This document shows positions 4,852-57,064 of a DNA stretch of 57,541 nucleotides, in pieces (position 1 is the stretch's first letter; each line of letters starts with the position of its first letter). This stretch comes from a virus (lineage: Duplodnaviria; Heunggongvirae; Uroviricota; Caudoviricetes). Position numbers and translations under genes: made by a program. The stretch lies in IMG/VR virus record IMGVR_UViG_3300029935_000001, positions 265,867 to 323,407 of that record; one strand, given 5' to 3'. Below the pieces are notes generated by a model. It saw only the letters and a list, made by a program, of their open reading frames with translations, made no database searches and had not been told where the DNA came from.

Positions 4852-5158
4852 TCAACCTGATTACACGCCCGACGTGTGGGAGATCGTGGTGATCACTGAT
4901 CACGCCGCCGGCGAATCAACGCGCCGCGTTCTTGCTGGGTGGTACGGGGGATATGCTAAGTCTGATTCTTGGCAGCTTTCGTCCGGAATCGTTGACGAGA
5001 AGCCCGGGGAGAAATACACCGACTACCACAACCACTCGGGCTCGATCTACCGCTGCTACCACAACAGCCGCCGTACCAGCTCGCTCACGCAAAGCGTATT
5101 CAATCGTCTTGCTGCGGGCCAGACGGAAACGCTCCGGGTCACTATGGAAAAAGGTTGA
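4826..5158 (+). CDS. hypothetical phage protein
   Basis: YTPDVW...VLAGWYGGY..SDSWQLSSGI...SGSIYRC; coding-like ORF overlapping the upstream gene. Confidence 0.7.
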   Translation: MYMESFEDSQPDYTPDVWEIVVITDHAAGESTRRVLAGWYGGYAKSDSWQLSSGIVDEKPGEKYTDYHNHSGSIYRCYHNSRRTSSLTQSVFNRLAAGQTETLRVTMEKG

Positions 5159-52794: not shown

Positions 52795-52814
52795 AGTATT
52801 TGGAGGTAGTGAGT

Positions 52815-53393
52815 ATGGGTTTAGTCATTTATTTACATGGGTTTGCGTCAAAAGGCGAGTCGCCTAAGAGCATTTTGTTGGCTGAGAATCTTGCAGGCCA
52901 CACAGTAGTGGCACCAGACCTTCCACTTGATCCAGCTGCGCTCGAGCAGCAAATCACTGAGATTGTAGAATCTCACCACGAGCGCCCGGTGGTCTTCGTT
53001 GGTACCAGCCTTGGTGGGTTCTGGGCAAACTATTTTGCTCAGCGTTTTGACGCTCCATGCGTAATTGCCAACCCGTCGCCGTCACCGTCGGTGACATTAG
53101 CCCGCCGGGCTAATCAAGACACCCCAGTGTATGGTACCGATCGCACAGTACGCGTAACTGATGTGGTTCTCAGTGGGTTGTTGCGTGCTGAATCTTACTT
53201 GGTAAATAACACAAACGGAGCACTAATCAATCTCTTTGTTGCCAAGGACGACGAACAGCTAGATTATCAAGCTATGTTAGCAGCGTTTCCGTTCACTGCG
53301 TTCAAGGCGGTGATGGAAACTGGCGGTCACCGATTTGAGCAACACTGGCCCTTGGTAGTAAAGCGTGTGAAGGAACTGGTTGGTGATGTATGA
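52815..53393 (+). CDS. YqiA/YcfP-like alpha/beta hydrolase (esterase)
   Basis: YLHGFAS, GTSLGG nucleophile elbow, DEQL, GGHRF. Confidence 0.85.
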   Translation: MGLVIYLHGFASKGESPKSILLAENLAGHTVVAPDLPLDPAALEQQITEIVESHHERPVVFVGTSLGGFWANYFAQRFDAPCVIANPSPSPSVTLARRANQDTPVYGTDRTVRVTDVVLSGLLRAESYLVNNTNGALINLFVAKDDEQLDYQAMLAAFPFTAFKAVMETGGHRFEQHWPLVVKRVKELVGDV

Positions 53394-54290: not shown

Positions 54291-54318
54291 TTGACACAAA
54301 AAGTAAGTAGTGTATAAT
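54291..54318 (+). promoter_or_regulatory. sigma70-type promoter
   Basis: TTGACA-N16-TATAAT with an upstream A tract. Confidence 0.8.
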
Positions 54319-54382
54319 AAGAACTGTAGTAAATGATGTCGAGCGTGGGGTTGAAACTGGAACCCAGTCACTAAGACATCAA

Positions 54383-54394
54383 GCTCTTTTAAAA
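54383..54394 (+). promoter_or_regulatory. rrn-like boxA
   Basis: GCTCTTTTAAAA; further copies at 54776, 54836 and 56388. Confidence 0.55.
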
Positions 54395-54395
54395 T

Positions 54396-54703
54396 TTAAC
54401 CGCCTAGGACTGTTGGCTTAAGAGCAGCCACCAGCTAAGGAGTCGAGCAAGGGCATGTAGTGACATTTAGTACCGCAGTGAAGGGCATCCAGCTGCGGGA
54501 AAGCTCAATAGGTTCGCACGTAAGCCGGCCACGATAACCGTGATTACCGTGTAACACAGCAAGGCAGTTTCGCTAGCTGCCAAAGCAATGGGATAGCTTC
54601 CCTGAGAGCGAGTTGCGCATGAGCCACCTGGTAAGCACGAGGACACCCCGGAGACGGTAAGGTCCAACTCTCGTTTGGCGTAATAGCACACCTAGGCGGT
54701 TAA
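54396..54703 (+). ncRNA. candidate 308-nt structured RNA
   Basis: Perfect 13-bp terminal helix TTAACCGCCTAGG/CCTAGGCGGTTAA with many internal hairpins; no convincing ORF. Confidence 0.6.
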
Positions 54704-54728
54704 GTTTTAAGTGAGTTTGAAAAAGAGG

Positions 54729-54757
54729 TTGACAGTAAGCGCAGTAGGCAGTAAAAT
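54729..54757 (+). promoter_or_regulatory. sigma70-type promoter
   Basis: TTGACA-N17-TAAAAT. Confidence 0.8.
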
Positions 54758-54794
54758 TAACACTTGGTAGTAACTGTTCTTTAAACAATCTGAT

Positions 54795-54826
54795 GCGGGA
54801 GTGGTGGAATTGGTAGTCACATCACT
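54795..54826 (+). pseudogene. tRNA-Leu-like 5' half remnant
   Basis: GCGGGAGTGGTGGAATTGGTAGTCAC; no matching 3' half in the window. Confidence 0.45.
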
Positions 54827-54869
54827 AAGACATCAGCTCTTTAAAAATTAGTGCCCTGGGGCAAAACCG

Positions 54870-54901
54870 CTAAATAATTGGTAGACACAGGATCAATTAT
54901 G
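54870..54901 (+). promoter_or_regulatory. late promoter plus RBS/start-sequestering hairpin
   Basis: CTAAATA; ATAATTGGT-AGACACAGG-ATCAATTAT(G). Confidence 0.7.
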
Positions 54902-55675
54902 AAGCGAATTGCAACGCCTATAGAAACAACAGAACTTTGTTCGTATGGTTGTGGCCAGGTTGGGAAGTATGTTAACGGATCGGGAAAAATAATGTGCTCC
55001 GAACGACATAACTCTTGCCCAGCAAACAGAAAGAAAAACTCTGCCGGCTTGAAAGAAGCACATAGGAGAGTTTTTGAAAAAACTGGAAAAGCAACCTTTT
55101 ATGATTATTCGATGTTGCCAGAAGAAACAAAACATCGAATGAATCATAATAAGGGCAAAACAGCCGAAACCTATGAACCAGTTAGGAAACGGACAGAAGC
55201 GTGGAAAAAGAGTTATTCTAAGCATAAATGTAATGCTACGCCAAAAGGTGTAGCAGCTGATCCGAGTTTGCGATGGAAGAGGAATAAAATTCCGTATATT
55301 GATTGGCAAGGAAACAAGTGTGTTTTAGAGTCAATACACGAATGGCAAGTAGCTAATGAACTTGACAAAAATCAAGTTCGCTGGATTAGGCCAAGATATA
55401 TTAGGTTAGCAGACGGAAGGAAATATGAACCGGATTTTTATCTAATAGATTTTGATATCTATTTAGATCCAAAAACAGAATGGAAAGGTAAAGCTAAAAA
55501 ATACCAAGGTTATTCCGGTCAAGACGGGCAACTTGAAAAAATAAAACAAGTTGAAAAAGAATTAGGTGTAAAAATTCTAATTTTATGGTCTTCTGATAAA
55601 AGATCGTTTAGTTGGAAAGGCATAGAGGAACAAATAAGGGCGTGTGGCGAAATTGGTAAGACGCAATGGACTTAA
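54899..55675 (+). mobile_element. putative homing endonuclease (Zn finger plus PD-(D/E)XK domain)
   Basis: LCSYGC..C..CPAN; ESIHE..YEPDFYL..IYLDPK; AT-rich; 3' end overlaps tRNA-Leu. Confidence 0.7.
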
Positions 55676-55724
55676 AATCCATCGACCTTGAGTCATGTGG
55701 GTTCGAATCCCACCATGCCCACCA
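55638..55724 (+). tRNA. tRNA-Leu (UAA)
   Basis: GGGCGTG/CATGCCC acceptor stem, ATGGA-CT-TAA-AA-TCCAT anticodon arm, long variable arm, GTTCGAATC, encoded CCA. Confidence 0.95.
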
Positions 55725-55729
55725 AACAC

Positions 55730-55752
55730 GGTGCCCCGGGGTACCACTTTTT
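55730..55752 (+). terminator. terminator-like hairpin
   Basis: GGTGCCC-CG-GGGTACC followed by ACTTTTT. Confidence 0.55.
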
Positions 55753-55803
55753 AACTGCGTTCGCTCAGTGAGCAACATTAAAGTGAGCGCAGTTAAAAAG
55801 TGG

Positions 55804-55832
55804 TTGACACGCAACAAATAGGCGTGTAAAAT
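55804..55832 (+). promoter_or_regulatory. sigma70-type promoter
   Basis: TTGACA-N17-TAAAAT. Confidence 0.8.
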
Positions 55833-55837
55833 TAACA

Positions 55838-55929
55838 CAGTTGATTACTTGTAGAACGCACAGCAACAAACGCCGAGCATGGGGCGCTGTGTAATGCGAC
55901 AAGGACACTTGGGCTTCGTGAGTTCAACT
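55838..55929 (+). ncRNA. candidate ~90-nt structured RNA
   Basis: CAGTTGA/TCAACTG closing stem; CTTGT/ACAAG and GCACAGC/GCTGTGT inner stems. Confidence 0.45.
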
Positions 55930-55960
55930 GGTATAAAGTTAACGAAGTGCGAACAAAAGG

Positions 55961-55989
55961 TTGACAGTGTAAGCTAGCTAAGTTATACT
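55961..55989 (+). promoter_or_regulatory. sigma70-type promoter
   Basis: TTGACA-N17-TATACT; ~45-bp near-identical copy at 56271. Confidence 0.85.
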
Positions 55990-56007
55990 GTTGACACAGT
56001 AGCAGCA

Positions 56008-56090
56008 GCTAGGAGCAGGTAGAAGTCCTGCGTAAAGACTCCGACGCTAGTAACCTAGTTAGGATGAAATGATTGACGATCTCCTAGTTG
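56008..56090 (+). ncRNA. candidate ~83-nt RNA with a T-arm-like hairpin
   Basis: AGCTAGGAG/CTCCTAGTT closing stem; GCAGG-TAGAAGT-CCTGC. Confidence 0.45.
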
Positions 56091-56097
56091 AAAAGAG

Positions 56098-56126
56098 TTG
56101 ACATGCTGCTGTTGAGCATGTATAAT
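56098..56126 (+). promoter_or_regulatory. sigma70-type promoter
   Basis: TTGACA-N17-TATAAT. Confidence 0.85.
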
Positions 56127-56139
56127 ATTTAAAAATTAG

Positions 56140-56258
56140 AGCTTTGCGTGTAAGGTGTGTGCTAGCAGCAACGCTAGACTAACTGCGAGGGGCAGGGCAC
56201 CAGCTGGGACACTTCGGCAGGAGGACTTGGGTTCGAATCCCAGGTTACACAAAAAGCT
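56140..56258 (+). ncRNA. tRNA-like RNA without a canonical anticodon arm
   Basis: GTGTAA/TTACAC acceptor-like stem, TTGGG-TTCGAAT-CCCAG T arm, outer AGCTTT/AAAGCT; no CCA. Confidence 0.55.
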
Positions 56259-56270
56259 TTAAAAAAGTGG

Positions 56271-56299
56271 TTGACAGCGTAAGCTAACTAAGTTATACT
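56271..56299 (+). promoter_or_regulatory. sigma70-type promoter
   Basis: TTGACA-N17-TATACT. Confidence 0.85.
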
Positions 56300-56316
56300 G
56301 TTGACACTGTAGTAAA

Positions 56317-56386
56317 GCAAGTTGACAACGACGCGGATGAAAAGCCCGCCAAGAGCGAAAAGCGCACGGTATATGTTGAACTTGCT
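56317..56386 (+). ncRNA. structured leader or small RNA before boxA
   Basis: AGCAAGTT/AACTTGCT closing stem. Confidence 0.4.
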
Positions 56387-56418
56387 GACTCTTTAAAAAC
56401 TTGGATCTATAACCATTA

Positions 56419-56528
56419 CTGAGCGTCAGTAATGCTCGCAAATGGTGTTGACTGCTACACGGCCCCCGGCTTATGGGGCAACCGTAAAACCCGGCGGCAC
56501 TGTTTGCGTGTTTGAAACGCGCTCAGTT
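56419..56528 (+). ncRNA. candidate ~110-nt structured RNA
   Basis: ACTGAGCG/CGCTCAGT long-range stem competing with a local CATTACTGA/TCAGTAATG hairpin; GCCCC/GGGGC. Confidence 0.4.
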
Positions 56529-56535
56529 TTAATGT

Positions 56536-56696
56536 TCTTGATTAAGGGAAGCCCTTAGAGCCCAAAGCGTAAGTGAGGGATTGGGCAAGTACCGATCGGA
56601 GGAAGTCGAAAAACTAGCAAAGTCCTTGCTAGCCGGGAAACCGGAGCGTGATTCGAAGCTGTCATCACCTGAGATACGGCCGATCTAAATCAAGAT
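56536..56696 (+). ncRNA. candidate ~160-nt structured RNA
   Basis: TCTTGATT/AATCAAGA closing stem; GATCGG/CCGATC; CTAGCAA/TTGCTAG; CCGG-GAAA-CCGG. Confidence 0.5.
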
Positions 56697-56699
56697 ACT

Positions 56700-56786
56700 G
56701 CGGATGTGGCCTAATGGTTGGGCGCCAGCCTTCCAAGCTGGTAAGGCGAAAGCCGTAAGCAGGTTCGATTCCTGTCATCCGCTCCA
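56700..56786 (+). tRNA. tRNA-Gly (UCC) with a 17-nt variable arm
   Basis: GCGGATG/CATCCGC, U73, CCA; CCAGC-CT-TCC-AA-GCTGG; variable region TAAGGCGAAAGCCGTAA. Confidence 0.92.
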
Positions 56787-56890
56787 TTTTAAATCAAGTC
56801 TATAGCGTTCTTTGGCGTAGGTCTGAGGTTAGACTACTATAGTTACCAAGCCGTTCAAATCGGTGAGACGACCAAAGTGATTTAAAATGG
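56784..56890 (+). ncRNA. degenerate tRNA-like module in a 13-bp stem
   Basis: CCATTTTAAATCA/TGATTTAAAATGG; GTCT-GAGGTT-AGAC D-like arm; GCCG-TTCAAAT-CGGT T-like arm; ACCA. Confidence 0.4.
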
Positions 56891-56997
56891 ATCAGTTATG
56901 TAGGGCGCAACTTAACCCTGCCGCTGCGAAAGCTATACGGCGATGAGAAAGGCACGGACTTCAGTGGAAATACGCCGTTCGTCCCCTACTAACTGAT
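56891..56997 (+). ncRNA. candidate ~107-nt structured RNA
   Basis: ATCAGTTA/TAACTGAT and GTAGGG/CCCTAC closing stems; GCCG/CGGC with GC-GAAA-GC. Confidence 0.5.
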
Positions 56998-57002
56998 TCA
57001 AT

Positions 57003-57035
57003 GCGCAGGTGGTGTAATGGCAGCCACGCCTGACT
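57003..57035 (+). pseudogene. tRNA 5' half interrupted at the anticodon loop
   Basis: GCGCAGG-TG-GTGTAATGGCAGCCAC-G-CCTGA-CT, then non-tRNA sequence containing CTAAATA. Confidence 0.75.
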
Positions 57036-57064
57036 TTCGACTAAATACTGTTGAGGACAGGATA

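Follow-up and report, generated by a model that had tools for sequence, protein, structure and literature searches.

A promoter-dense array of putative stable RNA genes, one of them resembling the GTPase-associated centre of 23S rRNA, at the head of a phage tRNA island

The question raised by positions 54,291 to 56,997 of the window (the whole stretch of 57,541 nucleotides that was analysed, i.e. the final 57.5 kb of a 323,407-bp phage contig) is whether the non-coding segments among its tRNA genes are genes for structured RNAs, and what such RNAs would resemble. The locus contains six near-consensus sigma-70 promoters, three rrn-type boxA sites, two tRNAs, one homing-endonuclease-like gene and nine non-coding modules, here called M1 to M9 (Table 1). 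Since the ends of the contig overlap, the assembly is circular; 25 of the 27 tRNA genes called by ARAGORN in the genome fall within the initial 21 kb of the contig and the remaining two at its extreme end, so that the 2.7-kb stretch heads a single tRNA island of about 25 kb that wraps the contig junction. In the initial annotation, the modules had been described as a phage repertoire of discrete structured small RNAs among tRNAs, each closed by its own terminal helix, and all nine with their closing helices were found again by reading and folding of the sequence. The reading favoured here, at a probability of about 0.55, is that of a promoter-dense island of stable RNAs, highly expressed, processed like tRNAs, and including mimics of the RNAs of the translation apparatus. 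That M1, M4, M5 and M8 are real RNA genes is very probable, and the array as a whole is likely to be a stable-RNA repertoire.

The region was compared with Rfam 15 (at the gathering score, and at E ≤ 10 with the whole region and with short pieces) and scanned with ARAGORN; only the tRNA-Leu at 55638-55724 and the tRNA-Gly at 56700-56786 were detected, the remainder being noise. The earlier statement that none of the modules could be assigned to a known family therefore stands for all nine modules with respect to Rfam, and has to be given up for M1, which copies the GTPase-associated centre of 23S rRNA. By blastn of the region in three pieces, together with the copies from phage BUCT-ZZ01 and contig L030, against 50,697 phage records, matches were obtained solely in Atu_ph07 (M5), BUCT-ZZ01 (M8) and three Pseudomonas phages (M1). 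M1, M4 (T arm only), M5 and M8 are supported by compensatory changes seen in other phages, always at sites in or beside tRNA clusters, and the modules are dissimilar to one another in sequence. At least four unrelated conserved RNA families stand side by side under consensus promoters, none of them in Rfam 15 or in the literature searched, which yielded no description of rRNA mimics from phages, of L11 decoys or of stable RNAs of this kind in tRNA clusters. These families may be included, under no name, in a catalogue of about 10,000 unnamed viral RNA candidates (PMC10690425).

M1 was aligned with the E. coli 23S rRNA (rrlH), to which it is identical at 25 of 32 positions over 1057-1088 (23-28 of 32 in the other family members) and at 12 of 15 over 1089-1103, and Smith-Waterman local alignment with 1047-1088 gave z = 6.9. 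As in the GTPase-associated centre (H42-H44, E. coli 1051-1108), the H43 hairpin with its loop, the junction (UAAGGA; UAAAGA in E. coli) and the H44 loop (GCGUAAUAGC) are kept, and the closing helix (54396-54408/54691-54703, 13 bp) stands at the place of H42. M1 differs in being free-standing, in its length of 308 nt with an insert of about 240 nt, and in its H43 loop, which is UUAAGAGCA instead of UUAGAAGCA. In L058, a strain 96% identical to the window, one pair of the H43 copy is changed from C-G to A-U and the loop is the canonical UUAGAAGCA.

Further members of the M1 family were found by blastn of its 3′ part in the gaps between tRNA genes of the Pseudomonas phages Astolliot, UNO-G1W1 and pf16. 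The invariant 17-mer CCCCGGAGACGGTAAGG, which is present exactly in M1 at 54645-54661 with a GAGA tetraloop, within the insert between junction and H44, retrieved ten IMG/VR contigs, most of them with tRNAs no more than 70 nt away. Twelve members were aligned, some short (160-200 nt) and others, M1 among them, long (270-340 nt); the terminal helix has a different sequence in each member, with its pairing kept. In the seven short members (M1 excluded), 93.9% of the cells were paired and 13 pairs carried double changes (slid controls, 39-50%); double changes occurred in 8 of the 10 pairs of P1, and the helix that closes the insert (columns 48-51/180-183) covaried at 4 of 4. In the five long members (M1 included), 27 of the 53 pairs of the consensus fold had double changes and 4 of the 5 closing pairs covaried. 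By its covarying terminal helix in the H42 place, its copies of the H43 and H44 loops and its insert with a 4-bp helix and CCCCGGAGACGGTAAGG, M1 was assigned to a phage family mimicking the GTPase-associated centre, an uncurated family that is defined partly by these alignments (A5 and A6). Read at the level of sequence, this family is a rebuilding of H43, the junction and H44 on a closing helix that replaces H42, a variable insert separating the junction from H44. In rRNA, the 58-nt domain is a binding site of uL11 and thiostrepton. No uL11 gene was found in a search of the phage genome, and any partner of M1 would therefore be a host protein or an unrecognised phage protein.

M8, whose 5′ end overlaps the CCA of tRNA-Gly, shares 77% identity with a stretch of Synechococcus phage BUCT-ZZ01 that carries no annotation and lies 4 nt upstream of tRNA-Tyr. 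Exact or degenerate patterns of its core gave zero matches in IMG/VR, and a scan of JGI metagenomes with the core recovered two true members and three chance hairpins. Members lie in the tRNA clusters of a cyanophage (BUCT-ZZ01) and of metagenome contig L068, where M8 starts at the end of tRNA-Glu. Four distinct members and one strain variant, all of equal length, were aligned (A7); 97.7% of the cells were paired and 18 pairs had double changes (slid controls, 30-46%; no shuffle as high), which argues for a genuine pseudoknotted RNA, although covariation counts on families as small as those of M8 and M5 (four and three distinct members) are indicative only. The outer helix pairs 56784-56796 with 56878-56890 (13-14 bp). 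One of the two inner hairpins is invariant with the loop GNGGUU, and the other, of 4 bp, has the T-loop sequence UUCRAAU. The G-U pairs of both M8 and M5 are consistent with the + strand only.

The position of M8 directly after a tRNA bears on the alternative that some of the modules are processing ribozymes, M8 cleaving itself to help mature a polycistronic transcript of tRNAs and small RNAs, in the manner of the theta ribozymes that cut phage tRNA 3′ ends and are documented beside phage tRNAs (Kienbeck et al. 2024, PMC10879173). Like those ribozymes of the HDV-like (hepatitis delta virus-like) kind, which are small nested double pseudoknots directly after phage tRNA genes, the inner fold of M8 (outer helix omitted) has the strand order P1-P2-P3-P1′-P4-P2′, and this order is backed by covariation; an invariant C86-G87-A88 stands just before the 3′ strand of its second helix, where HDV-like ribozymes hold the catalytic C, and the start of M8 coincides with the 3′ end of a tRNA both in the window (tRNA-Gly) and in L068 (tRNA-Glu). 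In contrast to theta ribozymes (PMC10879173), M8 has the T-loop hairpin and the 13-bp outer helix, which would keep both products together, and the hallmarks of the HDV-like core are absent from alignment A7: the first covarying pair of the P1 equivalent is C-G or U-A instead of the G1.U wobble; the hairpin in the P3 position has 6 bp and the 6-nt loop GNGGUU instead of 3 bp with a C-rich L3 forming P1.1; and the first residue after the P4 equivalent (J4/2) is G or A instead of the catalytic C, the invariant C86 following 4 nt later. No Rfam match to HDV-like or other ribozymes was obtained even at E ≤ 10 in a 711-nt search, the putative cleavage site would lie 12 nt past the CCA of the tRNA, and in BUCT-ZZ01 and strain L058 no tRNA precedes M8. 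A processing ribozyme is accordingly regarded as unlikely.

Over 56 nt, M5 shares 86% identity with an intergenic stretch of Atu_ph07 (L002), and a third member was located by pattern scan on an IMG/VR contig (L030) at the head of a cluster of 32 tRNAs. Common to all three are AACRAC, the hairpin GCGGAUGAAAAGCCCGC with its A.C mismatch kept, RAGAGC, a mini-hairpin and GCAYGGUA. The closing helix is different in each member yet paired: 94% of the cells were paired and 5 of the 6 closing-helix pairs counted had double changes, figures that are likewise only indicative. The hairpin is identical at 16 of 17 positions to E. coli 23S rRNA 1277-1293 (H47), together with an AACGA flank, whereas the 3′ half of M5 beyond the hairpin has no rRNA counterpart. 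Mimicry of H47 is accordingly a lead suggested by the alignment rather than a finding.

M4 has a 6-bp T stem with the loop UUCGAAU and an elaborate body of about 70 nt that replaces the D and anticodon arms, and carries no CCA. In the mosaic contig L061 its T stem is CUGCGG/CCGCAG in place of CUUGGG/CCCAGG, a difference of two double changes and one single change among its pairs. In strain L058, which differs from the window by 4% overall, M4 is free of substitutions. A local match of 11.9 bits to the tRNA-like part of transfer-messenger RNA (tmRNA) was obtained in Rfam (E 0.0095), far below threshold. When M4 and M8 were considered as tRNAs (RF00005, ARAGORN), T arms were present and an anticodon arm was missing, so neither is a cloverleaf. 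The T-loop-like hairpins described earlier in the array are indeed those of M4 and M8, and the GNRA loops are those of M1 (GAGA), M7 (GAAA) and M9 (GAAA). Pseudoknotted tRNA mimicry is known from the tRNA-like structures (TLS) of plant viruses. M4, a coaxial minihelix of acceptor and T arm without an anticodon arm, and M8, with its T loop, GG loop and pseudoknot, resemble the tRNA-like domain of tmRNA, the Y RNA YrlA and viral TLS; they differ in that no Rfam match reached threshold, that the end of M4 has no encoded CCA, and that neither an mRNA-like part nor a Ro-binding stem was seen, no search having been aimed at either. With regard to the functions suggested in the initial annotation (tRNA decoys, protein sponges or ribozymes), mimicry is what the sequences favour, shown in M1 by sequence and in M4 and M8 by motif.

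For half a century the tRNA cluster of T4 has been known to encode stable RNAs of unknown function, and the closest classical analogue of the array is the pair of T4 species 1 (rnaC) and species 2 (rnaD) RNAs, to which, to our knowledge, no function has yet been assigned. These are stable non-coding RNAs of 119-139 nt, annotated head to tail with phage tRNAs beside the homing endonuclease gene segB, and species 1 has a tRNA-type T arm, as has M4. The present array differs in having nine modules of unrelated folds, five with their own promoter, boxA leaders and one copy of an rRNA domain. Homology of the modules to rnaC or rnaD was rejected, the only match being a generic 13-nt T-arm sequence (GGGTTCGAATCCC) shared by M4 and rnaC, with nothing for rnaD. 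The array suggests that the T4 stable RNAs represent a small part of a far larger and more varied class.

The + strand between 53768 and 56299 (2.6 kb) carries eight promoters matching the sigma-70 consensus at 11-12 of 12 positions, against only six in the next 20 kb of the cluster, and promoter-like sites numbered 15 compared with 5.1 ± 2.5 in shuffles. Two of the eight are placed to drive small upstream open reading frames (ORFs) and the other six the units of M1, endonuclease/tRNA-Leu, M2, M3, M4 and M5-M6-M7-tRNAGly-M8-M9; the proposal that several modules have sigma-70 promoters of their own was thus borne out at the level of sequence for M1 to M5. Three boxA-like sites were found on the + strand of the 323-kb genome, all inside the array and each downstream of a promoter, two of them preceded by a conserved hairpin (the 3′ half of the second leader is 93% identical to the first leader). 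Sites 1 and 2 match the 12-nt consensus GCUCUUUAACAA at 9 and 10 positions and site 3 at 9, and the sites resemble the E. coli rrnH boxA TGCTCTTTAACAATTTA. As in the E. coli rrn leaders (boxB-boxA-boxC), the array motif GCTCTTT(T)AAAA, which matches the rrnH boxA TGCTCTTTAACAA, is located 60-80 nt downstream of a strong promoter and after a hairpin; unlike them, the array leaders stand in a phage, ahead of small RNAs and of a homing endonuclease/tRNA unit, and no boxC was identified. A strong promoter followed by a hairpin and boxA is the layout of rRNA operon antitermination leaders, which argues that the RNAs downstream are made like stable RNAs and agrees with a repertoire of such RNAs.

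The hairpin of the first leader (54329-54353) was also aligned with 16S rRNA 811-836, the start of h26, with 22 identities in 26 columns and two gaps (z 4.6); this candidate was set aside as compatible with chance given about 100 comparisons, and the copy in the second leader is without the 16S-like part. Upstream of M2, the 3′ arm of a perfect 17-bp inverted repeat reaches the -35 region of the promoter, and the stretch 55730-55804 varies among strains, L058 and L061 carrying a different loop with a 21-nt insert.

Table 1. Features of the array and its immediate surroundings (positions in the window).
Feature	Position	Strand	Remarks
Sigma-70 promoter, M1 unit	54291-54318	+	TTGACA-16-TATAAT; 12/12 matches
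First leader	54334-54394	+	Hairpin TGATGTC...GACATCA, then boxA GCTCTTTTAAAA at 54383-54394 (sequence)
M1, 308-nt RNA	54396-54703	+	13-bp closing helix in the H42 place; H43 copy 54410-54434; H44 copy 54675-54690; insert of ~240 nt
Promoter, endonuclease/tRNA-Leu unit	54729-54757	+	11/12 matches
Second leader	54790-54847	+	Hairpin CTGATG...CATCAG, then boxA GCTCTTTAAAAA at 54836-54847 (sequence)
Homing-endonuclease-like gene, 258 aa	54899-55675	+	Up to about 40% of the protein aligns with proteins carrying Vsr-like (PF04480) or HNH (PF01844) domains
tRNA-Leu(UAA)	55638-55724	+	ARAGORN, Rfam
Terminator-like hairpin and inverted repeat	55730-55804	+	Hairpin and U run (55730-55745), then 17-bp inverted repeat (55743-55804) into the M2 promoter (sequence)
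Promoter of M2	55804-55832	+	11/12 matches
M2, orphan, 92 nt	55838-55929	+	Near-identical strains only; all 4 substitutions in one loop
Promoter of M3	55961-55989	+	Promoter scan
M3, orphan, 83 nt	56008-56090	+	8-bp closing helix; 2 substitutions relative to L058, both unpaired
Consensus promoter of M4	56098-56126	+	12/12 matches
M4, tRNA-like RNA	56140-56258	+	Acceptor-like GUGUAA/UUACAC on T arm CUUGGG-UUCGAAU-CCCAGG; extra outer helix
Promoter, M5-M6-M7-tRNAGly-M8-M9 unit	56271-56299	+	Promoter scan
M5, 70-nt three-helix RNA	56317-56386	+	Invariant hairpin GCGGAUGAAAAGCCCGC resembling 23S H47
Third boxA-like site, after M5	56388-56399	+	ACTCTTTAAAAA (sequence)
M6, orphan, 110 nt	56419-56528	+	Strongest fold signal; 0/200 shuffles as stable; terminator-like hairpin at end
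M7, orphan, 161 nt	56536-56696	+	8 substitutions relative to the strain, 5 unpaired
tRNA-Gly(UCC)	56700-56786	+	Long variable arm; ARAGORN, Rfam
M8, 107-nt pseudoknotted RNA	56784-56890	+	P1 13 bp; P2 17-22/54-59 crosses P3 27-32/89-94; hairpins 35-53 and 67-81
M9, orphan, 107 nt	56891-56997	+	4 substitutions relative to the strain

The leaders were also weighed as part of the alternative that the modules are cis-acting leaders, riboswitch-like elements or hidden small protein genes controlling the endonuclease and its neighbours. The two boxA leaders are genuinely cis elements, and ORFs of 30-38 codons overlap M2, M4, M6 and M7; the short ORFs, however, have no ribosome-binding sites upstream in the sequence, most modules precede another promoter or RNA gene instead of a coding gene, and M1, M5 and M8 lie between tRNA genes with no adjacent ORF in other phages. 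Control in cis or by small proteins is very improbable as a description of the array.

In the favoured reading, that of a stable-RNA island, the array would be transcribed early and very strongly by host RNA polymerase from the six near-consensus promoters, whose activity is predicted from their match to the consensus, and the Nus antitermination machinery would be brought in by the boxA leaders, as happens in rRNA operons. Nucleases that process tRNA and rRNA would excise the modules, with the terminal helices protecting their ends, and the RNAs so released would work in trans by imitating components of the translation apparatus: M1 would offer a free copy of the uL11/GTPase-associated centre of 23S rRNA, M4 a minihelix of tRNA acceptor and T arm, M8 an elbow of T loop and GG loop that a pseudoknot holds in place, and M5 an invariant hairpin with an A.C mismatch. 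They may thereby bind, titrate or redirect host proteins, the conceivable partners being ribosomal proteins and factors, tRNA- or rRNA-directed enzymes and defence nucleases. A decoy or sponge function is entertained tentatively, at somewhat less than even odds. Phage RNA decoys and replacements are known in the form of pseudo-ToxI repeats, RNA anti-CRISPRs and phage tRNAs that replace those cut by anticodon nucleases. The modules would share with these the principle of countering or circumventing a host protein by means of a phage-encoded likeness of a host RNA; they differ in what is imitated, which is an rRNA domain and tRNA sub-domains here and an antitoxin RNA, CRISPR RNA (crRNA) repeats or whole tRNAs there. 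If the decoy idea holds, an RNA-only layer would be added to phage takeover and counter-defence directed at the translation apparatus.

A bolder version, in which the array is a purpose-built kit of imitation translation parts (the copy of the rRNA GTPase centre, copies of the tRNA acceptor/T arm and elbow, and possibly more rRNA- or RNase P-like pieces among the orphan modules), made at rRNA-like levels to sequester host proteins by which ribosomes and tRNAs are attacked or sensed during infection, is considered doubtful. Its targets might include defence nucleases directed at rRNA or tRNA, the stringent response that depends on uL11, and modification enzymes; if true, the kit would constitute an RNA-only counter-defence or takeover system with swappable cassettes traded between phage tRNA clusters. 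Independently of function, the array is a compact, clonable test object of 2.7 kb whose host-type promoters should work in E. coli, and M8 (pseudoknot and T loop) and M5 (hairpin with conserved A.C mismatch) provide two new small folds for structural and biochemical work.

Several results weigh against the stable-RNA island with translation mimics. Closing stems of at least 8 bp spanning 60-320 nt are not enriched, numbering 11 here and 9.7 ± 3.6 in random windows of the same, AT-rich genome, and the case consequently rests on comparison with other sequences; apart from M1 and M8, the closing helices are of 6-8 bp. For M2, M3, M6, M7 and M9, no homologue was found beyond the 96%-identical strains in phage records, IMG/VR patterns, related contigs or the whole records of five large phages, and M2 folds no better than shuffles. 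Bacterial genomes contain over 120 occurrences of the exact phage 17-mer of M5; of the 120 matches listed, not one lies inside a 23S gene. Mimicry of an RNA site is in itself no proof of a decoy role. Finally, M5 and M8 are absent from the closest large relatives examined, though present in distant phages, which makes them dispensable and patchily distributed; by the same distribution the modules behave as exchangeable cassettes of tRNA clusters.

The fold-energy z scores were -2.5 for M1, -0.8 for M2, -1.95 for M3, -2.1 for M4, -1.8 for M5, -4.4 for M6, -2.5 for M7, -3.2 for M8 and -2.1 for M9. Between the 96%-identical strains, 6 of the 20 substitutions in the orphan modules (M2, M3, M6, M7 and M9) fall at predicted paired positions, where about 63% would be expected, and 4 of the 6 affected pairs stay paired; in L061, one pair of the M3 closing helix is changed from U-A to U-G. 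The five orphan modules are probably RNA genes, though this is unproven, and the repertoire initially proposed is accordingly upheld for M1, M4, M5 and M8, which covary in the tRNA clusters of unrelated phages, and left unproven for the other five. As minor observations, CCCGGCUUAU, a sequence also seen in the conserved CR-V/P4 strand of RNase P RNA, occurs in M6 (56448-56481; alignment with rnpB 334-368, z 3.9), and the adjacent M7 (56596-56640) contains GGAGGAAGUCG and AGCCGGG, reminiscent of RNase P CR-I. Both likenesses were judged compatible with chance given about 100 comparisons.

It was further considered that the modules might be functionless debris of a fast-changing tRNA cluster, i.e. 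decayed tRNAs, terminators, promoter hairpins and scars of homing endonucleases. The cluster is in flux, with one tRNA-Leu split by an endonuclease gene and with tRNA-Gly alleles and a segment of about 185 nt that differ between 96%-identical strains; M4 and the extra segment of L058 have tRNA-like T arms, five modules are without a distant homologue, and 8-bp closing stems are common by chance. Against this, M1, M5 and M8 are kept with compensatory changes across unrelated phage lineages, which requires selection on the fold; M1 and M5 have nothing tRNA-like, M1 to M5 each have a near-consensus promoter, and M4 is invariant between strains 4% apart. The outcome that had been named beforehand as refuting, namely stems that are only terminators or decayed tRNAs without conservation, was thus not observed for M1, M4, M5 and M8. 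The modules are neither decayed tRNAs nor mere terminators, and the debris explanation is slightly less probable than the already unlikely ribozyme.

Relatives of the locus were sought via the protein encoded upstream at 52800-53393 (three contigs, 46% identity) and via homologues of the endonuclease, and in the contigs so obtained the modules were present solely in the 96%-identical strains L058-L060 and the mosaic contig L061. The DNA polymerase of the phage shares 44-48% identity with its counterparts in Sinorhizobium phage Phosso and Agrobacterium phage Atu_ph07. Nothing was detected by BLAST of M2-M9 and by covariance models of M8 and M5 in the whole records of the closest IMG/VR relative, three other large IMG/VR contigs, Atu_ph07 (M8 model) and BUCT-ZZ01 (M5 model). 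Close strains differ by whole cassettes, L058 having a 73-nt tRNA-Gly and the segment of about 185 nt where the window has the long-arm tRNA-Gly. Such turnover, together with the array architecture, resembles the description of UG27 systems, phage-encoded arrays of structured non-coding RNA units that are gained and lost between close relatives (bioRxiv 10.64898/2026.09.22.753630), and would fit the alternative that the array provides reverse-transcriptase templates like the UG27 arrays of prophages. In the present genome no RVT_1 match was found, and the absence of an encoded reverse transcriptase sets the array apart; its modules are moreover non-homologous to each other, whereas UG27 units share one fold. 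Membership in a UG27-type array was therefore rejected, and this alternative is close to refuted.

The last 38 nt of the endonuclease gene lie within tRNA-Leu(UAA), the anticodon of which coincides with the stop codon TAA of the gene (55673-55675). No Vsr-like or HNH domain was found in the 258-aa ORF itself by domain search. The homologues retrieved (47-69% identity, ten contigs) all lie immediately upstream of tRNA-Leu(UAA), which suggests from gene position a homing endonuclease family specific for this tRNA gene. A second, paralogous endonuclease gene splits tRNA-Leu(UAG) after the U of the anticodon loop; the 5′ half is at 57003-57036 and the 3′ half about 930 nt further on, across the contig junction (genome C1:422-464), whereas tRNA-Leu(UAG) is intact in strain L058 (L058:3199-3282). 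Directly before this 3′ half lies the apparent 3′ half of another tRNA (T arm and CCA).

Although it has Gly identity elements, the tRNA-Gly(UCC) of the array carries a variable arm of 17 nt, which contains a hairpin of its own. The tRNA-Gly(UCC) of BUCT-ZZ01 (L001:5756-5841) is of the same length, 86 nt, and strain L058 carries an ordinary 73-nt tRNA-Gly at this site (L058:2719-2791), followed at L058:2792-2976, between tRNA-Gly and M8, by the extra non-coding segment of about 185 nt, which contains the T-arm-like hairpin GCTGGTTCGATTCCAGC and has no rRNA similarity. Elsewhere in the tRNA island, two Rfam tRNA matches of 103 and 121 nt, uncalled by ARAGORN, were located in genome C1 at L193:2161-2263 and 4967-5087, and may be tRNAs with large inserts or tRNA-scaffold RNAs. 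A permuted tmRNA of the two-piece type was identified inside the island at L193:12794-13188 of the same genome (Rfam RF04321, 112 bits; RF01850, 90 bits).

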